Shown piece after piece: positions 15,837 through 52,181 of a DNA stretch of 64,000 nt (positions are counted from its first letter, which is position 1; every line of letters begins with the position of its first letter). Origin of the DNA: a virus (Duplodnaviria; Heunggongvirae; Uroviricota; Caudoviricetes); IMG/VR virus record IMGVR_UViG_2563366825_000011, positions 1 to 64,000 of that record; one strand, given 5' to 3'. Under the pieces are notes generated by a model. The model was not told the DNA's origin, did no database searches, and saw nothing but the letters and a program-made list of their open reading frames with translations. A program made the position numbers and the translations under genes.

Positions 15837-16065
15837 GCAAAAAAGCTCCCGAAGGAGCCTTCATTTTCACTTTTTTAAATCCAACGACAGACGGCTGGCA
15901 TTTAAGTATTGTGAAATATTATCAAATGTAATCATCATTGATTTACAAAAGATACATTTTGCCCCGAAAGGATTCATGTCAGAAACATCAAAAGATGATG
16001 TTCTATACTGGGAACCATGACAACACGGGCATCTAAAGTGAATATGATTTGTAATATTGTCTACC

Positions 16066-16278
16066 TCAAAGCGCCACTACATGAACAGCGGCAGGACCTT
16101 TAGGTCCGTTCTCAATACCAAATTCAACTTCCTGATTCTCAGTTAATGTTTTGAAATCGTTGCTCTGAATTGCTGAGAAATGGACAAACACATCTTTGCT
16201 GCCATCTTTCGGCGTGATGAAACCAAAACCTTTTTCAGGGTTAAACCATTTCACTAAACCAGTCATTTTGTTAGACAT
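16066..16278 (-). CDS. cspI: Cold shock protein CspI (CspA family)
   Basis: 70-aa [70 protein letters not shown] with RNP1/RNP2 motifs. Confidence 0.9.
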
Positions 16279-16640
16279 AATTATTACCTTTTGAAGAAAT
16301 TAGCCCTTGGGCAGAATGGTCCGAAAAAAAATATCAGAGAGAAAAACCAACAAGGAAATCTCAAGAGGTACAAATAATAAAATTATAACAATGACTGCTT
16401 CAGATAAATTTGTAACAAACCAGAACACCATTAACGCATGATTAACCACCCATAGCAAGGATTACTTTTGTAAAGAAAAACACAGCAATGAAAGAATAGC
16501 TTTATTTATTAATAAAACGTGTCATTCTGATTAAGACCTTTTATCTTACCCTTAAGATTTCAGGAATTTTGGCTCATGGAAGAGTCCTTTTTATTTAAAT
16601 TTTACATTCCGCGATGTAAATGTTCCGATTTAATATTACC

Positions 16641-18672: not shown

Positions 18673-18949
18673 TTGTGGTGCTTTTTGTGGGAGTCATCCA
18701 CTTACGCACTTTGTTTTGCCATGCCAGCAGTTAGCTTCTGCTGTAAAACTATTCATGCAGCAAACCTGCACTTCACCACAATGGTTAGCATACTTTTCCT
18801 GATTAAGATTTTGCCAAATATGCTGGCCATTGTTTCATGTATTGGACCTCCTTACTTTTTATTAAAGAGATCCAATATTCACTACTCTGTCCGTATCTCT
18901 ACTCAGGCATCAGCCTTCTTCGTTATCGTATACAGACGAGCGATGAATT

Positions 18950-19165
18950 TTAATCAGTAATGATGACATTTGCTGCTGCAGGACCTTTAGCACCACTCTC
19001 TATAGAGAAGGTAACCTTTTGACCTTCAAATAAGGTTCGATAATTATCATTCTGAATCGCAGAAAAATGCACAAACACATCTTTACTACCATCAACAGGA
19101 GAAATAAAGCCGAAACCTTTATCAGCGTTAAACCATTTTACTAAACCAGTCATTTTATTTGACAT
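18950..19165 (-). CDS. cspB: Cold shock protein CspB
   Basis: 71-aa [71 protein letters not shown]. Confidence 0.9.
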
Positions 19166-19465
19166 TCTACATTCCTTAACTTGAGCCTTTCGGCATAAAT
19201 GGTTTGCATAACAGAAACGACTTCGTACTTAATTGGAGAGACTCAAAGAAGGAATAAGTGAATAACACCTGAAATGAGAACTGCTTTAGTAAACTACTTC
19301 GTATATCGTCTGTTCTTCAAACCGACGCAATCATTAACGCATAGTTGAACATATGAAGCAATGTTTATTTTAGACATCCAGCCATCTTCAACCCCATCAA
19401 AAAACTATAGCTTTCTTCAGGAACGTGTGTATAGTGCGCCAAGTTATCAGTATTAAGGAATTTTT

Positions 19466-27421: not shown

Positions 27422-29087
27422 GAAAAATCCCCCAGAGAATTGTCTGGGGACATTTTAGAATGGTTCAAAGGGGACATTACAGCTTGGTGTTAACAATAGC
27501 CTGCTTCTCCGTGCCTTTCGGCACGTAAGAGGCTAACCTACATGTGTCTAGCATGAAATTGGCCTCAGATTAATGTTAAGCGTCTTGCAGGACGCGTAAT
27601 GTTAACTGGGGCTTTTCTCTATCTGCCGTTGGTGTCCATGCCCGAGGCAGATAGCCTCAAGCACCCGCAGTCATTCTACTTAACTAAGATTTCCCCGCAA
27701 ACCGTTTTTGTCCAGCACAGTAAATATCCAACTAAACCAATGGAGTTCGCTGTATTTACCGCCAGTATTCAATGCACATGACCGCCATGAACACCCCTAA
27801 AAAAAGGGCATTTATATATCCAAATATTAATATCAAAACATCAACTTTTTCCATATACCTTGCTGTGAAGATGATGGGCATACATGATGCGAACAACCAG
27901 AACGCAACAAACAAAAACTGCAATGCGTTTTTCATTATTCCTCCTACAATCAATGTGCAATTACATTTAAACACACCTCAATTTGGCCGGACATATAAAT
28001 ATCTAAACCAGAAAAAATCACTTACATAGCGTTACAAACTCTTTAGTCTAAAGGTTCATCGTAAAACATTCCCCATACTTATCAGTCCGTTCCGCGCCAG
28101 GTAGCTCATTGCCTTATCTGGCAACCTGTAATCAGGTTTCCGCTTTTTCAGTTGGCTGGTCGTTTAACCGACATAGTTAATCCATTAATCTAGTTGCCGG
28201 ATGTTGGTGGATTTTCGCGTTTTAGTTGTTCATAAAAGTGCACAGCTTTAACCAGTTCTTCTGATGTAACTGGGACTGGTGAGGCAGTGAATAAGGCCTG
28301 AATTTGATAGTTCGGCCTGTCGTTACAATCCTCTTTTTTCGGTACATATTTCCAGTCACCAGACCACTACTTCCCCTGAAAGTCCGTAACGCCTTTTTTC
28401 ACGTAGCGATATCGCCATGCCACTGGTTTTGCTTGCCCCGCCGTTTCATGCCCTTCCTGATAATTAATCTCGCTCATTCATCGCCCCACTCATCACAATA
28501 TGCTTCGACCGGAGTTTTTCCCGCTTCATAGTCATCACGCTAGGATTCGACATCAGCAGCACTTCCACCGCGTAACTCACCATAGTCCATTAATAGTTCA
28601 TCCCGCTCTTCAAAACTGATGTTATATTTAGCTGAACAAAAATCAGCCACTTTGTTCTTCCTCATCGTCTTTTATTTCGTGGTATGAGTAATTGCAGTAG
28701 TTAAAGAAAATTTCTTATGCTCCGTCATGAATTTCCTCAGGTGTTGCGTCATCGTCCACTTCGAATACATCCTCAAAATCTCCACCAGCTATTCCCGTTT
28801 CAATAATAATTTTGAACTTTCGCATTTCACTACCGCCCTTTCGGGCTGCCTCCTGATGTTCTGAGGGTGCAGAAATCCATCCGGTTAAGGATTAAATTTT
28901 ATTTACAGAACTGAATTTAATTATTCAGATATACGTATCTGTAGCCTTACGAATCTACTCACTGGATGCCTCTTTCATAAAAATAATCCAGTGGGTTTTA
29001 TCGTTTTTTCCCTGTTCGTTGACAGATAACAGGTTTTCTGTCTGTCAGTGCCAGAATCTGGCTTACCGGTATTTGCGTTTCATTCCA

Positions 29088-33251: not shown

Positions 33252-33304
33252 TTTCTGGTGACGTTTGGCGGTATCAGTTTTACTCCGTGACTGCTCTGCC
33301 GCCC
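33252..33304 (+). ncRNA. dicF: DicF small regulatory RNA (antisense inhibitor of ftsZ translation)
   Basis: TTTCTGGTGACGTTTGGCGGTATCAGTTTTACTCCGTGACTGCTCTGCCGCCC followed by TTTTT; matches the 53-nt DicF as recalled, with intrinsic terminator. Confidence 0.85.
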
Positions 33305-43419: not shown

Positions 43420-45846
43420 ATGTCCAAAAATGAACGAATGGTGGGCATCAGCCGCAGAACACTCGTTAAATCTACCGCGATAGGTTCTCTGGCGCTGGCT
43501 GCAGGCGGTTTTTCTTTGCCGTTTACCCTGCGCAATGCAGCAGCAGCGGTACAACAGGCCCGCGAAAAAGTGGTCTGGGGTGCCTGTTCCGTCAACTGTG
43601 GTAGCCGCTGTGCACTTCGTCTACATGTTAAAGATAATGAAGTGACCTGGGTGGAAACTGACAATACCGGCAGCGATGAGTACGGCAACCATCAGGTACG
43701 CGCCTGTTTGCGCGGTCGCTCCATCCGCCGGCGTATTAATCATCCCGATCGCTTGAATTACCCAATGAAACGCGTGGGCAAACGCGGCGAAGGCAAATTC
43801 GAACGGATTAGCTGGGATGAAGCCCTGGATACTATCGCCAGTAGCCTGAAGAAAACCGTCGAACAATATGGCAATGAGGCTGTATATATTCAGTACTCTT
43901 CGGGGATCGTTGGCGGCAATATGACCCGCTCTTCGCCATCAGCCTCGGCGGTCAAACGCCTGATGAACTGCTACGGCGGTTCACTCAACCAGTATGGCTC
44001 CTACAGCACTGCGCAAATTTCCTGTGCCATGCCCTACACCTACGGCAGTAATGATGGCAACAGCACCACGGATATTGAAAACAGCAAGCTGGTCGTGATG
44101 TTTGGTAACAACCCGGCAGAAACCCGCATGAGCGGTGGTGGCATCACTTATCTTCTTGAAAAAGCGCGCGAGAAATCGAACGCCAAAATGATTGTTATCG
44201 ATCCGCGATATACCGATACGGCTGCCGGTCGTGAAGACGAATGGCTCCCTATTCGCCCGGGCACCGATGCCGCGCTGGTTGCGGGTATTGCCTGGGTATT
44301 GATTAACGAAAATCTCGTTGATCAACCTTTTCTCGATAAATACTGCGTCGGCTATGACGAAAAAACCTTACCCGCAGATGCACCCAAAAATGGTCACTAT
44401 AAAGCCTATATTCTTGGTGAAGGTGACGATAAAACAGCGAAAACGCCGCAGTGGGCTTCGCAAATTACCGGTATCCCGGAGGACCGTATCATCAAACTGG
44501 CGCGTGAAATTGGCACAGCAAAACCCGCTTATATCTGCCAGGGCTGGGGGCCACAACGCCAGGCAAACGGCGAACTGACTGCACGCGCTATTGCTATGTT
44601 ACCTATTTTGACGGGCAATGTCGGCATCAGCGGCGGAAATAGTGGCGCGCGTGAATCGACCTATACCATTACCATAGAACGCCTGCCGGTGCTGGATAAT
44701 CCGGTCAAAACGTCAATCTCCTGCTTCAGCTGGACAGATGCTATCGATCATGGTCCGCAAATGACGGCAATCCGCGACGGCGTCCGCGGCAAAGATAAAC
44801 TGGATGTGCCCATTAAGTTCATCTGGAACTACGCGGGAAATACCCTCGTTAATCAGCATTCTGACATCAACAAAACGCATGAAATTCTGCAGGACGAATC
44901 GAAATGCGAAATGATTGTGGTCATCGAAAACTTTATGACCTCATCGGCAAAATATGCCGACATTCTGCTGCCAGACCTGATGACCGTTGAGCAGGAAGAT
45001 ATTATTCCTAACGACTACGCCGGTAACATGGGATATCTCATTTTCCTCCAGCCTGTCACCAGCGAAAAATTCGAACGCAAACCGATTTACTGGATCCTGA
45101 GTGAAGTCGCGAAACGTCTTGGACCTGACGTCTATCAAAAGTTCACAGAAGGTCGCACGCAGGAACAATGGTTACAACATCTGTACGCCAAAATGCTTGC
45201 CAAAGATCCGGCGTTACCGTCTTACGACGAACTGAAAAAAATGGGTATCTATAAGCGTAAAGATCCCAATGGCCATTTTGTCGCCTACAAAGCATTTCGT
45301 GACGACCCCGAGGCAAATCCACTTAAAACGCCTTCCGGTAAGATTGAAATTTATTCCAGCAGGCTGGCGGAAATTGCCCGTACCTGGGAACTGGAAAAAG
45401 ATGAAGTGATAAGCCCATTGCCAGTTTATGCCTCAACCTTTGAAGGCTGGAACTCCCCTGAACGTAGAACCTTCCCACTGCAACTGTTTGGTTTCCATTA
45501 CAAATCCCGTACTCACTCGACCTACGGCAATATTGATCTCCTGAAGGCTGCCTGCCGTCAGGAGGTGTGGATCAACCCTATAGATGCGCAGAAACGTGGG
45601 ATTGCCAACGGCGATATGGTGCGGGTGTTTAACCATCGTGGCGAAGTTCGGCTACCAGCCAAAGTAACACCACGTATTCTCCCTGGAGTTAGCGCTATGG
45701 GCCAGGGAGCCTGGCACGAGGCCAATATGTCTGGCGATAAAATCGACCATGGCGGCTGTGTGAATACGCTAACCACTCTGCGCCCTTCACCACTGGCGAA
45801 GGGAAACCCGCAGCACACTAATCTGGTCGAGATCGAAAAAATATAA
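43420..45846 (+). CDS. ynfE: Molybdopterin oxidoreductase YnfE (DMSO reductase family, putative selenate reductase catalytic subunit)
   Basis: 808-aa ORF with Tat signal (SRRTLVKS) and Cys cluster CSVNCGSRC. Confidence 0.9.
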   Translation: MSKNERMVGISRRTLVKSTAIGSLALAAGGFSLPFTLRNAAAAVQQAREKVVWGACSVNCGSRCALRLHVKDNEVTWVETDNTGSDEYGNHQVRACLRGRSIRRRINHPDRLNYPMKRVGKRGEGKFERISWDEALDTIASSLKKTVEQYGNEAVYIQYSSGIVGGNMTRSSPSASAVKRLMNCYGGSLNQYGSYSTAQISCAMPYTYGSNDGNSTTDIENSKLVVMFGNNPAETRMSGGGITYLLEKAREKSNAKMIVIDPRYTDTAAGREDEWLPIRPGTDAALVAGIAWVLINENLVDQPFLDKYCVGYDEKTLPADAPKNGHYKAYILGEGDDKTAKTPQWASQITGIPEDRIIKLAREIGTAKPAYICQGWGPQRQANGELTARAIAMLPILTGNVGISGGNSGARESTYTITIERLPVLDNPVKTSISCFSWTDAIDHGPQMTAIRDGVRGKDKLDVPIKFIWNYAGNTLVNQHSDINKTHEILQDESKCEMIVVIENFMTSSAKYADILLPDLMTVEQEDIIPNDYAGNMGYLIFLQPVTSEKFERKPIYWILSEVAKRLGPDVYQKFTEGRTQEQWLQHLYAKMLAKDPALPSYDELKKMGIYKRKDPNGHFVAYKAFRDDPEANPLKTPSGKIEIYSSRLAEIARTWELEKDEVISPLPVYASTFEGWNSPERRTFPLQLFGFHYKSRTHSTYGNIDLLKAACRQEVWINPIDAQKRGIANGDMVRVFNHRGEVRLPAKVTPRILPGVSAMGQGAWHEANMSGDKIDHGGCVNTLTTLRPSPLAKGNPQHTNLVEIEKI

Positions 45847-45906
45847 CCCACGACAACCATAAATTCTGGCATGACATTTTGTTTGAAAAGCAATAAGTGA
45901 GTAATG

Positions 45907-48330
45907 ATGAAAATCCATACCACAGAGGCGCTCATGAAGGCTGAAATCAGCCGTAGAAGTCTGATGAAAACCTCCGCACTTGGCAGTCTTGCGCTGGCAA
46001 GCAGTGCTTTCACTCTGCCATTTTCCCAAATGGTCCGGGCGGCAGAGGCTCCGGTAGAAGAGAAAGCGGTCTGGAGTTCCTGCACCGTTAACTGCGGGAG
46101 CCGCTGTCTGTTACGTTTGCATGTGAAAGATGACACCGTGTACTGGGTGGAGTCTGATACGACAGGTGACGACGTCTACGGTAATCATCAGGTTCGAGCG
46201 TGTTTACGCGGGCGCTCTATCCGCCGACGGATGAATCATCCTGATAGGTTGAAATATCCCATGAAGCGCGTCGGCAAGCGCGGTGAAGGTAAATTTGAAC
46301 GGATAAGTTGGGACGAAGCCCTGGATACCATCAGTGATAATCTTCGGCGGATCCTGAAAGATTACGGCAATGAGGCTGTACATGTCCTGTACGGAACAGG
46401 CGTAGATGGCGGAAACATCACCAACTCAAACGTCCCGTACCGTCTGATGAACTCTTGCGGTGGTTTTCTCAGTCGCTATGGCAGCTACAGTACCGCACAG
46501 ATCAGTGCCGCAATGAGTTATATGTTCGGTGCCAATGATGGCAACAGCCCGGATGATATCGCCAATACGAAACTGGTCGTTATGTTCGGAAATAACCCGG
46601 CAGAAACGCGGATGAGCGGCGGTGGTGTCACTTACTACGTCGAGCAAGCCCGCGAACGTTCAAACGCACGCATGATCGTCATCGATCCACGTTATAACGA
46701 CACTGCTGCCGGGCGTGAAGATGAATGGCTGCCCATTCGCCCTGGCACCGATGGCGCACTGGCCTGTGCGATTGCCTGGGTACTGATTACTGAAAACATG
46801 GTCGATCAGCCATTTCTCGACAAATATTGTGTTGGTTACGATGAAAAAACGCTGCCCGCCAACGCACCACGTAACGCGCATTATAAAGCCTATATTCTGG
46901 GCGAAGGGCCTGACGGCATAGCTAAAACGCCGGAATGGGCAGCAAAAATCACCAGCATCCCGGCAGAAAAAATTATCCAGTTGGCACGAGAGATCGGTTC
47001 AGCAAAACCTGCTTATATTTGTCAGGGTTGGGGGCCACAACGACATTCCAACGGCGAGCAAACATCCCGCGCTATTGCCATGCTTTCCGTTCTCACCGGC
47101 AACGTCGGCATAAACGGCGGCAACTCAGGCGTACGCGAAGGTAGCTGGGATCTGGGGGTAGAATGGTTCCCGATGCTCGAGAATCCTGTTAAAACGCAGA
47201 TTTCCGTCTTTACATGGACAGATGCCATCGACCATGGTACGGAAATGACCGCGACCCGTGATGGTGTTCGTGGAAAAGAAAAACTGGATGTCCCCATCAA
47301 GTTTTTATGGTGCTACGCCAGTAACACATTGATCAATCAACATGGCGACATCAATCACACCCATGAGGTGCTTCAGGATGACAGCAAGTGCGAGATGATT
47401 GTTGGCATTGACCACTTCATGACGGCCTCGGCTAAGTATTGCGATATCCTGTTGCCCGACCTGATGCCAACAGAGCAAGAAGACCTTATCTCTCATGAAT
47501 CTGCAGGGAATATGGGCTATGTGATCCTCGCCCAACCCGCAACCTCAGCAAAATTTGAACGCAAACCCATCTACTGGATGCTGAGTGAAGTCGCCAAACG
47601 CTTAGGACCAGACGTTTATCAAACCTTTACTGAAGGTCGCAGTCAGCATGAATGGATCAAATATCTCCATGCGAAAACGAAGGAACGTAACCCTGAGATG
47701 CCCGACTACGAGGAGATGAAAACGACCGGGATCTTTAAGAAAAAATGCCCGGAAGAACACTACGTCGCTTTCCGCGCATTCCGTGAAGATCCACAGGCAA
47801 ACCCGTTGAAAACACCTTCGGGGAAAATCGAAATTTATTCTGAACGACTGGCGAAGATTGCAGATACCTGGGAATTGAAAAAAGATGAAATTATTCATCC
47901 CCTTCCTGCGTATACCCCAGGTTTTGATGGCTGGGACGATCCCCTGCGGAAAACCTATCCACTGCAGTTAACGGGCTTCCATTACAAAGCGCGTACCCAC
48001 TCCAGCTACGGCAATATTGATGTGTTACAGCAGGCCTGCCCACAAGAGGTGTGGATCAACCCCATTGATGCTCAGGCACGCGGTATCCGTCATGGCGATA
48101 CCGTGCGGGTATTTAACAATAATGGAGAAATGCTGATTGCCGCAAAAGTGACTCCGCGTATTCTGCCTGGCGTTACCGCCATCGGGCAAGGTGCGTGGCT
48201 TAAAGCGGATATGTTTGGTGACCGGGTCGATCACGGCGGCAGTATCAATATTCTGACCTCTCACCGCCCTTCACCGCTGGCAAAGGGAAACCCGTCGCAC
48301 AGCAATCTTGTCCAGATCGAAAAGGTTTAA
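45907..48330 (+). CDS. ynfF: Molybdopterin oxidoreductase YnfF (DmsA paralog)
   Basis: ~807-aa ORF paralogous to ynfE; Tat motif SRRSLMKT, CTVNCGSRC. Confidence 0.9.
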   Translation: MKIHTTEALMKAEISRRSLMKTSALGSLALASSAFTLPFSQMVRAAEAPVEEKAVWSSCTVNCGSRCLLRLHVKDDTVYWVESDTTGDDVYGNHQVRACLRGRSIRRRMNHPDRLKYPMKRVGKRGEGKFERISWDEALDTISDNLRRILKDYGNEAVHVLYGTGVDGGNITNSNVPYRLMNSCGGFLSRYGSYSTAQISAAMSYMFGANDGNSPDDIANTKLVVMFGNNPAETRMSGGGVTYYVEQARERSNARMIVIDPRYNDTAAGREDEWLPIRPGTDGALACAIAWVLITENMVDQPFLDKYCVGYDEKTLPANAPRNAHYKAYILGEGPDGIAKTPEWAAKITSIPAEKIIQLAREIGSAKPAYICQGWGPQRHSNGEQTSRAIAMLSVLTGNVGINGGNSGVREGSWDLGVEWFPMLENPVKTQISVFTWTDAIDHGTEMTATRDGVRGKEKLDVPIKFLWCYASNTLINQHGDINHTHEVLQDDSKCEMIVGIDHFMTASAKYCDILLPDLMPTEQEDLISHESAGNMGYVILAQPATSAKFERKPIYWMLSEVAKRLGPDVYQTFTEGRSQHEWIKYLHAKTKERNPEMPDYEEMKTTGIFKKKCPEEHYVAFRAFREDPQANPLKTPSGKIEIYSERLAKIADTWELKKDEIIHPLPAYTPGFDGWDDPLRKTYPLQLTGFHYKARTHSSYGNIDVLQQACPQEVWINPIDAQARGIRHGDTVRVFNNNGEMLIAAKVTPRILPGVTAIGQGAWLKADMFGDRVDHGGSINILTSHRPSPLAKGNPSHSNLVQIEKV

Positions 48331-48340
48331 GGAGTAGCCC

Positions 48341-48454
48341 ATGACCACACAATATGGATTTTTTATCGATTCCAGCCGCTGTACTGGCTGTAAAACCTGC
48401 GAACTGGCGTGCAAAGATTTTAAAGTTGGTTACGTATCGTTTAAAATCAATTAG
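48341..48454 (+). pseudogene. ynfG: ynfG (Fe-S subunit) truncated after ~26 codons by insertion of an accessory element
   Basis: MTTQYGFFIDSSRCTGCKTCELACKD then divergent FKVGYVSFKIN-stop; the YnfG reading frame is lost at about 48419/48420. Confidence 0.8.
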
Positions 48455-48498
48455 ATAGCCCGTCATTTCTGCGCTCACACGTCCCAACATTGAAAAAC

Positions 48499-48532
48499 AT
48501 GCAAAGCTTTGTAAGCCGATGCAAAGCTTTGT
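48499..48532. repeat. Two 14-bp direct repeats ATGCAAAGCTTTGT, each containing the 10-bp palindrome CAAAGCTTTG, spaced 20 bp apart; operator-like
   Basis: Repeats at 48499-48512 and 48519-48532, ~80 bp inside the element boundary and ~100 bp upstream of a putative promoter. Confidence 0.45.
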
Positions 48533-48621
48533 GTGTCTCACTTTTGTCCCAATACCAATCCGAATCCACCCTTTGTCATCATTGAGAAATGGCAAGGAAG
48601 AAAAGGATGTTACTGCACGAT

Positions 48622-48651
48622 TTGACAAATCCGCCAGAGCTATCGCATACT
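48622..48651 (+). promoter_or_regulatory. Putative sigma70 promoter (-35 TTGACA, -10 CATACT) upstream of the antirepressor paralogs
   Basis: TTGACA at 48622-48627, 18-bp spacer, CATACT at 48646-48651; followed by hairpin CCGCA...TGCGG plus T-tract at 48678-48707. Confidence 0.3.
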
Positions 48652-48869
48652 GATCGCACTGAACAAATAAGCGGTCTCCGCACCCGATAGCTTTGCGGCT
48701 TTTTTATGCCTGCAATTTGGCATAGTTACATCCGTACAAAGGTCGGGTGGAGAGGCGTAATACAACACCCGCAAGGGGAATATGCCCAGAGCTTCTTATT
48801 TGGCTCAGTTGACACCCGACCGCCAGCTACTAACTGGCGGTTATAAACTAAACAAATAAGGAGGTCATC

Positions 48870-49154
48870 ATGACCAGTCAACTCATCCCCGTATTCAACG
48901 GTTCTATCTCAAACCAAGCAGCCCTTCTATGCAATGCTCGCAATCTACACGCTTTCCTTGGGGTTGGTAAACGCTTTGCATCGTGGATAACAGAACGTAT
49001 TGCTGAATATGGTTTCGTTGAAAAACAGGACTATATGATTGCTTCCCAAATTCGGGAAGCAAAAGGTAGAGGCGGTCACAACCGCAAGGAATACCACCTC
49101 ACCCTCGACACAGCCAAAGAGCTTGCGATGGTTGACGACTGCGTCCAATACTGA
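48870..49154 (+). CDS. Phage antirepressor-like protein (AntA/KilA-N-type N-terminal domain), short paralog
   Basis: 94-aa MTSQLIPVFNGSISNQAALLCNARNLHAFLGVGKRFASWITERIAEYGFVEKQDYM...EYHLTLDTAKELAMV; strong RBS AGGAGGTCATC; paralog of the ORF at 49404. Confidence 0.6.
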   Translation: MTSQLIPVFNGSISNQAALLCNARNLHAFLGVGKRFASWITERIAEYGFVEKQDYMIASQIREAKGRGGHNRKEYHLTLDTAKELAMVDDCVQY

Positions 49155-49403
49155 CTATACTCCGCGCCGAGGCCTCGAAAACCTCCCAAAAGCGGATTAA
49201 ACCAACCCCGTCAGTGTTGGATTTTTTATGCCTGTTATTCAGTGATAGCACAGTGTGCGGTCACATCCCCGATCAATGTCGGGAGGGCGACGAATACAAC
49301 ACCCGCAAGGGGAATAAGTCCGCGGTATCTTTTGGGCCGTTTCGAGCCTCCCGGCACCACATCTTGTGGTGGCATTTCTCGAAAAAAGCCAAAGGAGGTC
49401 ATC

Positions 49404-50033
49404 ATGACCACTCAACTCATCCCTGTGTTTGAAGGTACAATCTCAAATGAACCTACGCTTCTGGTGAACGCGCGTGATTTGCATGGATTTTTAGAGGTAG
49501 GTAAAGATTTTTCTAACTGGATACGGGCCAGGCTAAACGAGTATGGATTCGTAGAAAATTTAGACTACATTCTATTTTCGCCAAATTTGGCGAAAACTCC
49601 AGGCCGCCGCCGCAAGGAATACCACCTCACCCTCGACACAGCCAAAGAGCTTGCGATGGTTGAACGTAACGAAAAAGGTCGCCAGATCCGCCGCTACTTC
49701 ATCGAGTGCGAAAAGAAACTTCGCAACATTCAGCCAGTACAAGCAGAACCACAGCCGCAATTCACAGCCGAGGAAATCATCCTCCTTTGCTACATGCAGC
49801 TCTGGATGGAAAAAGCCCAGGACCTCAGCAAACACCTGTATCCCATCATGAAAGAGCTGAACTCCTCATACACGAACAAGCTGTATGACATTGCGTTTGA
49901 GACCATCTACATGGTGACGAAGAACAGAGATGCGTTACTGAGGGAAGTAACACGTCTCGACATGTCAAGTTCCGTTATCCAACGAGCCATGCCAATGCTG
50001 AAAAGCCTGCGGGCAAGGCAATTCGAATTCTGA
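49404..50033 (+). CDS. Phage antirepressor (AntA-like N-terminal domain plus C-terminal extension), long paralog
   Basis: MTTQLIPVFEGTISNEPTLLVNARDLHGFLEVGKDFSNWIRARLNEYGFVENLDYIL...; start chosen at the Met with RBS AAAGGAGGTCATC rather than the upstream ORF start at 49242. Confidence 0.7.
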   Translation: MTTQLIPVFEGTISNEPTLLVNARDLHGFLEVGKDFSNWIRARLNEYGFVENLDYILFSPNLAKTPGRRRKEYHLTLDTAKELAMVERNEKGRQIRRYFIECEKKLRNIQPVQAEPQPQFTAEEIILLCYMQLWMEKAQDLSKHLYPIMKELNSSYTNKLYDIAFETIYMVTKNRDALLREVTRLDMSSSVIQRAMPMLKSLRARQFEF

Positions 50034-50229: not shown

Positions 50230-51456
50230 ATGCCGGTAACTATAACAAAAATCAGAACTGGAGAAGATGTTTTGTCAGCAGCCATTCACCGCATTGAATG
50301 GTTGTTTGAAACATTCTCTTCTGTATGTTTATCTTTTTCTGGCGGTAAAGATTCCACTGTACTTTTCCATCTTGTAGCCGAAGTGGCCTACAGGAAGAAA
50401 CGTCGTTTTTCTGTATTGTTCATTGACTGGGAAGCCCAGTATCAATGCACCATTGATCATATACAGAAGATGCGGATGATGTACCAAGATGTAACAGATA
50501 CCTTTTACTGGGTTGCACTTCCCCTGACGACAGTAAATGGTGTCTCGCAGTTTCAGCCTGAGTGGATATGCTGGGAGCCCGGTGTAGAGTGGGTTCGACA
50601 GCCACCGGAAGATGCTATTACTGATATGGCGTATTTCCCCTTTTACCGCTACGCCATGACTTTTGAAGAATTTGTCCCAGCTTTTTCTTCCTGGTTCGCA
50701 AGTAACCAATGTAGCGTGGCAATACTGACTGGAGTCCGCGCGGATGAATCTCTTAACAGATTTATGGGACTGGTTTCCCAACGAAAACTGAGATATGCAG
50801 ATGATAAACCCTGGACCACGGCGTCACCTGAAGGTTTTTACTACACCATGTATCCGCTGTATGACTGGAAAACCAACGATATCTGGGTATATAACGCTAA
50901 AACCTGTGCAATCTACAATCCTCTGTATGATTTGATGTACCGTGCAGGCATTCCTCTACGTAATATGCGTGTCTGTGAGCCTTTTGGCCCGGAACAGCGT
51001 AAGGGACTATGGCTTTATCATGTTCTGGAGCCAGAAACTTGGGCACGGATGTGTGAACGAGTATCTGGTGCTGCCAGTGGGGCTCTTTATGCCAATGAAA
51101 GCGGGGCCTATTTTGCCCTGCGTAAACGGATGTCAAAACCATCCCATCATACCTGGCGCAGCTATGCGTTCTTCCTGCTGGACGTAATGCCGGAAAGAAC
51201 GGCTGAACACTACCGCAACAAGATAGCAGTTTACCTGCGCTGGTATCAGAACCGGGGATTCCCGGATGATATCCCGGATGAACAGGAAAATGATCTGGGC
51301 TGCCGGGATGTTCCCTCCTGGCGACGTATTTGTAAGACTCTCATAAAGAATGATTTCTGGTGCCGAACGCTCTCCTTCAGCCCCAACAAACCCCGGCACT
51401 ATGAACGTTACCTGCAGCGTATGAATGAAAGGAGGAAGGAATGGGGAATTCTGTGA
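50230..51456 (+). CDS. ibrA: PAPS-reductase-like (PP-loop ATP pyrophosphatase) protein, IbrA-like
   Basis: 408-aa ORF with PP-loop motif SFSGGKDS near the N-terminus and a C-terminal extension; paired and translationally overlapping with a ParB-like gene. Confidence 0.75.
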   Translation: MPVTITKIRTGEDVLSAAIHRIEWLFETFSSVCLSFSGGKDSTVLFHLVAEVAYRKKRRFSVLFIDWEAQYQCTIDHIQKMRMMYQDVTDTFYWVALPLTTVNGVSQFQPEWICWEPGVEWVRQPPEDAITDMAYFPFYRYAMTFEEFVPAFSSWFASNQCSVAILTGVRADESLNRFMGLVSQRKLRYADDKPWTTASPEGFYYTMYPLYDWKTNDIWVYNAKTCAIYNPLYDLMYRAGIPLRNMRVCEPFGPEQRKGLWLYHVLEPETWARMCERVSGAASGALYANESGAYFALRKRMSKPSHHTWRSYAFFLLDVMPERTAEHYRNKIAVYLRWYQNRGFPDDIPDEQENDLGCRDVPSWRRICKTLIKNDFWCRTLSFSPNKPRHYERYLQRMNERRKEWGIL

Positions 51457-52085
51457 CACCAGAGGTGGAGGTGCTGAGCAAGATGATTCGACAGTACTTC
51501 AGTCAGGAACAATCTGAAGAGAAAACCATACAGGCCCTGAACCATCTCCGCTGCGTACTCCATGAGATCAGCCCCTTTGCTCAAGAACCAGTGGACTGTG
51601 TGCTGTGGGTAAAAGCGGATGAAATTGTCGCTAACGATTATAATCCCAATGTCATGGCCCCAAGCGAAAAAAAATTACTGAAACAATCTCTGGAAAAAGA
51701 CGGTTTTACTCAACCAATTGTTGTTTCGGAAGAAACAAGCCATTACCTGGTGGTGGATGGTTTTCATAGGCAGTTACTAGGTAGAAGAACAGTTACTGGA
51801 AAACGCCTGAAAGGCTGGCTACCAGTAACCTGTATTAATCCAGACCGAAAGGGACAAACCTCACGTATTGCCGCGACTATCCGACATAACAGAGCCAGGG
51901 GGAAACACCAGATAACCTCAATGTCTGATATTGTCAGAGATCTTTCACGTCTTGGCTGGACTGATGAACGTATCGGAACAGAACTGGGGATGGACCAGGA
52001 TGAAGTTCTGAGGTTAAAGCAGATTAGCGGGCTAACGGAGTTATTTCAGCAGGCAGATTTCAGCCCTGCATGGACTGTTACATAA
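51441..52085 (+). CDS. ibrB: ParB/sulfiredoxin-like nuclease-domain protein, IbrB-like
   Basis: 214-aa ORF with ParB-type motifs (IVANDYNPN..., VVDGFHRQ); RBS AGGAGGAAGGA; overlaps the ibrA-like stop by 16 nt. Confidence 0.75.
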   Translation: MGNSVTPEVEVLSKMIRQYFSQEQSEEKTIQALNHLRCVLHEISPFAQEPVDCVLWVKADEIVANDYNPNVMAPSEKKLLKQSLEKDGFTQPIVVSEETSHYLVVDGFHRQLLGRRTVTGKRLKGWLPVTCINPDRKGQTSRIAATIRHNRARGKHQITSMSDIVRDLSRLGWTDERIGTELGMDQDEVLRLKQISGLTELFQQADFSPAWTVT

Positions 52086-52181
52086 AGTTAGGTTAGGCCT
52101 GTGGAGCCGGAGCCTGTACATAGATTTGTGTAATTGCCTGATTTTGATATGTTCAATCCAGCATCAAATGAAGGTTAATTT

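Follow-up and report, generated by a model that had tools for sequence, protein, structure and literature searches.

The sites bound by RDF proteins in phage attachment regions are direct repeats placed one helical turn apart (PMC7498355). In phage lambda, three Xis monomers are bound to the X1-X1.5-X2 sites (PMC7498355). The attP of phage P22 is about 260 bp long, and IHF sites have been reported in it that are not essential (table in PMC4111918). P22 Xis, a protein of 116 aa (PMC4111918), bends att DNA strongly and has defined operators (PMC7498355, a secondary source). On the host side, ynfG of E. coli has been published as the integration site of the Stx phages 75/02 and POCJ13 and of the RM10410 Stx1a prophage (PMC5447701, PMC10562709).

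The sequence analysed here, called the window below, is a 64-kb stretch of viral DNA in which phage sequence begins inside ynfG. An original prediction had noted this boundary and, just inside it, a pair of palindromic direct repeats, which it took for a dimeric HTH operator or a recombinase-binding arrangement. We propose that positions 48419-48618 are probably the P-arm, attR-type junction of a prophage with the attP architecture of P22, and that the repeats would form the block bound and bent by Xis.

The junction within ynfG

In the window, ynfE (43420-45846) and ynfF (45904-48330) are followed by a ynfG start at 48343 in the list of open reading frames. Alignment to the uninterrupted K-12 locus gave the exact junction: identity with K-12 ynfG extends through 48425, and phage-specific DNA starts at 48426. 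The ynfG 5' fragment (48343-48425, + strand) therefore consists of codons 1-28, MTTQ...ELACKDFK, past which the frame enters phage DNA as VGYVSFKIN* and stops at 48456. The predicted boundary in ynfG is thus real, but its end at ELACKD had been set 5-7 bp too far left. In genomes with an identical junction, this fragment is annotated as a partial '4Fe-4S binding protein'.

The far end of the element was read in E. coli G6/7 (NZ_CP060061), whose near junction is 100% identical to that of the window. There, K-12 sequence resumes at the heptamer TTTAAAG with the remainder (3' part) of ynfG, followed by ynfH and dmsD, and not one host base is lost. The element had been supposed to be inserted in the ynfGH region or to replace part of it; it is inserted, with a length of about 62 kb, and replaces nothing.

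When K-12, the window junction and the G6/7 far junction were aligned with one another, the 7-bp core, or overlap, fell at 48419-48425 (no strand assigned). TTTAAAG is found once in the K-12 attB and once in each prophage junction, and host sequence is contiguous across it. The heptamer is the place of strand exchange, and the original prediction was right in its hint of site-specific integration. The intact attB is nearly symmetric around it in K-12, reading GCAAAGAT-TTTAAAG-ATCTTGGC. Because of this symmetry, GCAAAGAT (48411-48418, + strand), which is host DNA, is plausibly the left (B) core-type half-site, mirroring ATCTTGGC across the overlap; the assignment is read from the K-12 attB. The same octamer had earlier been taken for a relative of the repeat core. 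We consider that match (13 of 16 positions) coincidental, since P22, with a thrW core, and epsilon34, with an argU core, carry the same TGCAAAG block.

The window junction is the int-distal one, that is, attR in lambda nomenclature. It is an ordinary prophage end, known in kind, at an already published site, and 55 of 5,426 complete E. coli genomes have it. Its value is mainly for annotation: ynfG is a known hot spot for Stx-type phages, and the 7-bp core allows occupied and empty ynfG to be scored directly. At the int-side junction of G6/7 (L002, 13735-13761), there are two GTG codons in frame, 5-6 codons ahead of the core. Read from sequence, they might in principle initiate a YnfG that is truncated at the N-terminus and without the first Cys cluster.

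A P22-type arm and its predicted integrase sites

To the right of the core, the int-distal P arm (48426-48618, + strand) is delimited by its identity in other ynfG phages and by its homology to P22. Positions 48440-48557 (118 bp) are 84.7% identical to P22, ST64T and phage L, directly past the thrW-derived core of these phages. In the weaker relatives HK542, HK75, g341c and SEN22, the match is limited to 48502-48551. The arm is 100% identical in 75/02 and POCJ13, and the DNA further right diverges. Stx phages that integrate in wrbA show homology only from about 48619 rightwards, which places 48426-48618 in the int/att module and apart from the ant genes that follow. From these comparisons we set 48618 as the right-hand limit of the module, the arm and the core together making up the attR-type junction.

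Copies of part of this arm were also seen outside functional arms. HK542 (L015, about 1990-2050) has a relic P22-type block with sites B and C (described below) outside its functional arm, and in g341c (L016, about 1995-2050) a P22-type block with sites B and C lies directly after an HK620-type int, upstream of gtrA. These relic copies imply that the block survives module shuffling.

The int and xis genes lie outside the 64-kb window and were read in other genomes and phages with an identical junction. One junction there is flanked by a tyrosine integrase gene, itself preceded by an RDF gene. Int has 387 aa, with a Phage_integrase domain (E = 1.5e-45), and xis-int lies 53 bp from the core. Over 97% of its length, Int is 71-73% identical to the Int proteins of SfII and of P22-like phages. 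Xis has 123 aa and an HTH_17 domain; its gene is upstream of int and overlaps the int start. Its N-terminal 85 aa share about 85% identity with P22 Xis, and the HTH is almost unchanged. Both proteins are orthologous to those of P22. When solved structures were searched by sequence, the matches to Int were confined to catalytic domains, those of HP1 Int and of Xer recombinases, and Xis had none.

For the map of the attachment site, attP was reconstructed from the window junction and the G6/7 far junction, with positions counted from the core centre. A hexamer unlike the core, GTC(C/T)CA, recurs in both arms. Two copies, at -106 and -95, fall within the 3' end of the int coding sequence; three others stand at +59, +113 and +124, and all five are on one strand. 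The background of the hexamer is 0.15-0.28 per kb, both strands counted. The three copies in the window are GTCCCA at 48481-48486 (site A, +59), GTCTCA at 48535-48540 (site B, +113, exactly 48 bp after A) and GTCCCA at 48546-48551 (site C, +124, 11 bp after the start of B), all on the + strand.

This geometry is common to the P22 attP family. A viral-contig collection was scanned with an anchor made of site A and its left flank only, and 58 unique arms were recovered. The A-to-B spacer is 48 bp in all 58, and sites B and C, which lie outside the search anchor, are invariant at the G, T, C and C/A positions. P'1 and A are 163-166 bp apart in 16 distinct contiguous attPs whose cores are of the thrW or argU type, and 165 bp apart in the ynfG phage. 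P22 itself, whose Int is 71% identical and whose Xis is homologous, has five GTCCCA sites at the same positions as the ynfG phage (-106, -95, +59, +113 and +124). The agreement is exact for all five when the P22 overlap is taken as the anticodon-loop heptamer TTACGAA. Both TGCAAAG repeats are present in the P22 arm. The two phages differ in their core, which in P22 is the anticodon region of the thrW tRNA and in the ynfG phage the coding sequence of ynfG (overlap TTTAAAG), and in their backbone, which in the ynfG phage is 933W-like and not P22-like.

The hexamer also follows the integrase. Int proteins with the N-terminus MSLFRRGE.WYAS pair with GTCCCAAATnTGTCCCA, and those with MSI.LRGG.WHC (HK542, L129, L075 and L097) pair with G(G/A)CACAAATACG(G/A)CACAA in the int 3' end; in HK542 a G(G/A)CACAA-type motif is also found in the P arm of the phage itself. 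Because it is present in both arms at fixed spacing and switches with the Int N-terminus, we assign GTC(C/T)CA, and not the palindromes, as the predicted Int arm-type sites. The map so obtained, with five arm sites, an IHF-like site, a putative Xis block and a swapped core specificity, could be useful for engineering or predicting integrase specificity; it leaves the current understanding of site-specific recombination unchanged.

A consensus scan returned, on each side, one-mismatch IHF matches between the core and the arm sites. The one in the window, AATCAATTAGATA (48445-48457, + strand), differs by 1 mismatch from WATCAANNNNTTR and is placed between the core and site A, where it is a candidate H site; the aligned P22 sequence is AAGTCAACAACATA.

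Three of the viral contigs mentioned above, L129, L075 and L097, have hybrid att regions. On the int side of a shared tRNA core they have P' sites of the G(G/A)CACAA type, within the int 3' end, and on the other side a P arm with sites of the GTCCCA type. Tandem prophages, or recombination at common tRNA cores, are the probable origin.

The repeated block between sites A and B

The two repeats lie in the 48-bp spacer. They are exact copies of the 14-mer ATGCAAAGCTTTGT, at 48499-48512 and 48519-48532 (+ strand), each holding the perfect palindrome CAAAGCTTTG. Their starts are 20 bp apart, that is, the predicted two helical turns, and the first begins 74 bp inside the element when measured from 48426, where about 80 bp had been given. 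No third copy was detected at up to 2 mismatches in the 64-kb window. The note had proposed to look for the same repeats at the other end of the element; with 3 mismatches allowed, the 26-kb far-end locus of G6/7 contained none. A half-motif, ATGCAAAG, does occur there, inside the int 3' end of the ynfG phage; P22, epsilon34 and PhiR34_1 lack it.

The repeats are not a chance occurrence, since the block is conserved in P22-family phages. In the lineage of P22 and the ynfG phage, the spacer reads, from left to right, GAAAAAC, ATGCAAAGC(T/C), TTG(T/C)AAGCCG, ATGCAAAGCT and TTGTGTGT. The P22 equivalent of 48492-48534 is AAAAACATGCAAAGCCTTGCAAGCCGATGCAAAGCTTTGT (L011, about 2055-2095). Here the repeats appear as units 1 and 3 of a run of (A/T)TG(C/T)AA(A)G phased at about 10 bp, namely ATGCAAAG, TTGTAAG and ATGCAAAG. 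The first 14-mer would contain the proposed Xis unit 1 (ATGCAAAG) and the start of the middle unit, the degenerate TTGTAAG at 48509-48515 (+ strand); the second would contain unit 3, 20 bp from unit 1. The palindrome of the first repeat, perfect in the ynfG phage (CAAAGCTTTG), is imperfect in P22 (CAAAGCCTTG).

In an ungapped alignment of 47 distinct arm sequences, the spacer sequence is highly variable across 16 lineages, and A-runs are phased at 9-10 bp in all 16. Columns A25-A27, T30, A34-A35, A54 and T60 are nearly invariant. The first phased A-tract is GAAAAAC, at 48492-48498 in the window (+ strand), in which A25 and A27 are invariant.

Arms were then matched to the Xis of their own contig. 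Where the HTH is of one of two almost identical types, FLKISRPTATNWIRTGRLQATRK or MLGISRPTATNWIKSGRLQATRK, the units are nGnAAAG, in the forms TGCAAAG, TGTAAAG, TAGAAAG, TGGAAAG and TCAAAAG. Two divergent HTH types pair with other units, namely TTGCnA, and GTTAC, GTAAC or GCAAC. Because the type of unit varies with the type of HTH, Xis is favoured as the ligand of the block, with a loose, AAAG-centred recognition. A strict one-to-one covariation between Xis and block did not hold. It is partial only, one HTH type being found with several AAAG-centred blocks; ENT47670 on the one hand, and L128 and L050 on the other, have the same HTH type and rather different blocks. Such a spread would call for recognition that is loose (AAAG-centred) or in part structural. 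The ynfG phages alone gave no footprint, since 75/02 and POCJ13 match the window at 100% over the first 230 bp or so.

The repeats are more likely excisionase-bound, as head-to-tail units 10 bp apart, and the palindrome a lineage-specific by-product or part of a hairpin. From the core outwards the arm would consist of the IHF-like site, site A, the 48-bp spacer, and sites B and C, with two GTCCCA in the other arm. A P22-family tyrosine integrase would have integrated the prophage into ynfG across the 7-bp overlap TTTAAAG. Upon induction, the P22-type Xis, a 123-aa HTH protein, would bind the units of the spacer head to tail and bend the arm sharply. Int bound at the flanking arm sites might then also reach the core, and the excisive complex would be assembled. 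Which protein touches which base, and the bending, we infer; the assignment of the block to Xis is comparative. Mattis et al. (2008) are reported to have found a single site protected by P22 Xis, with a bend of about 137 degrees.

Several features of this arrangement recall the lambda P arm, in which X1-X1.5-X2 likewise consists of two good direct repeats at a distance of 20 bp and a degenerate unit in the middle. In both phages these sites are in the int-distal arm and adjoin an Int arm-type site (P2 in lambda), and the block of the ynfG phage would be expected to serve cooperative RDF binding and bending as in lambda (PMC7498355). However, sequence similarity between the two blocks is zero, P22-type Xis proteins are larger (116-123 aa), and the order and orientation of the arm sites differ, the putative Xis block of the ynfG phage lying between A and B/C.

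The main rival to Xis binding is a hairpin, which we treat as a lineage-specific and possibly additional property of the block. The two repeats pair with each other in a 17-bp stem (48497-48513 with 48520-48536, no strand assigned) closed by a 6-nt loop, with a minimum free energy of -22.7 kcal/mol (z = -5.6). Such a stable stem-loop could be an intrinsic terminator, possibly bidirectional, and could coexist with Xis binding; as the explanation of the repeats we find it unlikely. It might end int transcripts in the free phage, like lambda tI/sib, or stop convergent late or host read-through. A consensus scan scores the hairpin as terminator-like, with an A-run before the stem and a T-run after it, and the homologous block is annotated as a terminator in SfII, epsilon34 and phage L. 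The hairpin is also stable in P22 (z = -4.7) and in SfII (z = -3.5), where the stem is kept after about 7 substitutions that destroy the direct repeat, the third unit being still complementary to the first. Since SfII keeps complementarity and loses the direct repeat, the inverted-repeat property itself would seem to have been selected in the lineage of P22, SfII and the ynfG phage. Over the whole family, the picture is different. A significant hairpin (z ≤ -3.5) is formed in only about 6-7 of 16 lineages, the P22-type stem is 65% paired across the 47 arms against 58.6% in shuffles and so is not conserved as a stem, and RNAalifold did not find a consensus stem across the family. Arms that form no hairpin nevertheless have the invariant 48-bp spacing and the phased A-tracts. 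Strand preference is absent, the + strand being the more stable in 12 of the 29 hairpin-formers. In the window itself, the T-run of the + strand begins 5 nt past the stem (tail CTCACTTTTG), and on the - strand TTTTT is found within 4 nt of the inner stem. The family-wide covariation and the strand symmetry thus speak against an RNA hairpin as the universal function of the block. Among Rfam families, the repeats gave only a sub-threshold match to a miRNA model, which reflects the hairpin. The lambda tI/sib hairpin lies outside the minimal attP. Like it, the hairpin of the ynfG phage is stable, lies across att from int and would be separated from int by integration; it differs from tI/sib in that it would overlap the Xis block, is not conserved in the family and has no strand bias. 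A Xis block that was co-opted, in the lineage of P22, SfII and the ynfG phage, as a (bidirectional) terminator or sib-like retroregulator embedded in attP is a doubtful variant. If true, it would mean that integration uncouples int from its own terminator, and that Xis binding and termination compete for the same 40 bp.

The other readings of the repeats give them to another DNA-binding protein. As direct repeats in an att arm, at about +77 to +110 from the core, they stand at a distance typical of arm-type sites, and a half-copy, ATGCAAAG, exists in the other arm of the ynfG phage; that they are themselves the binding sites of Int is nevertheless improbable. The half-copy is missing from the other arm in P22, epsilon34 and PhiR34_1, the block varies greatly among phages with nearly identical Int N-terminal domains, and it is GTC(C/T)CA that is invariant in both arms and gives way to G(G/A)CACAA with the Int N-terminus. 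Of the recombinase-binding arrangement originally suggested, the link to the recombination apparatus is therefore retained, and the repeats are probably not Int's own sites. It is very improbable that CII (C1) binds the block to activate a promoter for the establishment of lysogeny, in the way proposed for gtrA of epsilon34, whose genome paper suggests that CII activates the conversion cassette (PMC2629481). The minus strand of P22 and epsilon34 does read as a perfect TTGC-N6-TTGC-N6-TTGC, but in the window it is TTGC-N6-TTAC-N6-TTGC, with a middle box TTAC. Moreover, the TTGC strand is directed to the core and int, away from the downstream genes, a sigma-70-like -10 was not found in the right place, and about half of the lineages keep the architecture without any TTGC; the periodicity of TTGC, and with it the 'CII-binding sites' annotated in epsilon34, is a trivial outcome of GCAA units spaced at 10 bp on the opposite strand. 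The operator for a dimeric repressor of the adjacent antirepressor-like genes, as first imagined, had in its favour two perfect 10-bp palindromes upstream of ant-like genes, and is the least probable of all. The repeats travel with int and att and not with ant, so this reading is effectively refuted; in P22-like phages, P22 included, the same block stands upstream of the unrelated gtrA. In addition, the half-sites are only 5 bp apart from centre to centre, and the block is some 340 bp upstream of the ant start, with a promoter-like site and an Rfam-recognised RNA element in between. The Xis-bound block is the reading kept here.

The prophage and the remainder of the window

The element is a 933W-like prophage of about 62 kb, with a P22-family tyrosine integrase, in ynfG. 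In G6/7, the insert contains genes for an N4-gp56-type capsid protein, short-tail genes, a nanS-p-like esterase, lysis genes, a nin region, cI/cro/cII and bet/exo/gam, with xis-int at the far end. No stx genes are annotated in the G6/7 prophage, the sole relative inspected in full. The closest phage records are PhiR5_2 (99.8%), Shigella phage 75/02 Stx (91.5%) and POCJ13 (86.7%), all three linearised exactly at the ynfG junction. These ynfG phages (75/02 Stx, POCJ13, the RM10410 Stx1a prophage and Escherichia phage PhiR5_2) share the integration site of the window prophage. Both att arms are identical as well, with 100% identity over the first 230 bp or so of the P arm and an identical int end, and the int genes are 99-100% identical.

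Compared with the G6/7 prophage, the copy in the window has an extra IS256-family insertion. The element, at about 52111-53418 with a 402-aa transposase (52182-53390), lies between an IbrB-like gene and a Panacea-domain gene and is missing in G6/7, which is otherwise collinear. Near the att arm, an IbrA/IbrB-like pair is encoded at 50230-52085 (+ strand), consisting of a PAPS-reductase-like protein of 408 aa and a ParB/IbrB-like protein of 214 aa. A giant ORF of 2794 aa occupies 54172-62556 (- strand); its relatives are annotated as LPD38-domain proteins. It is only 93-97% identical to the G6/7 copy, and the flanking DNA is 99% identical.

Just past the arm, two matches to the Rfam family sRNA-Xcc1 (RF02221) were found on the + strand, at 48741-48829 and 49278-49363 (69.1 and 73.4 bits; gathering score 53). 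Two antA/AntB-like genes, the truncated 48870-49154 and the annotated homologue of 49242-50033, are each closely preceded by one of the matches, and a promoter-like TTGACA-18-CATACT (48622-48651) precedes the first match. The arrangement looks like a duplicated leader/ant cassette. In the left part of the window, further Rfam matches at 16039-16424, 18934-19326, 27495-27666 and 33253-33304 correspond to two cspA-type thermoregulators, sok and DicF. From these matches, that part carries a Qin-like cryptic prophage upstream of the ynf genes, and the window has two prophage regions.
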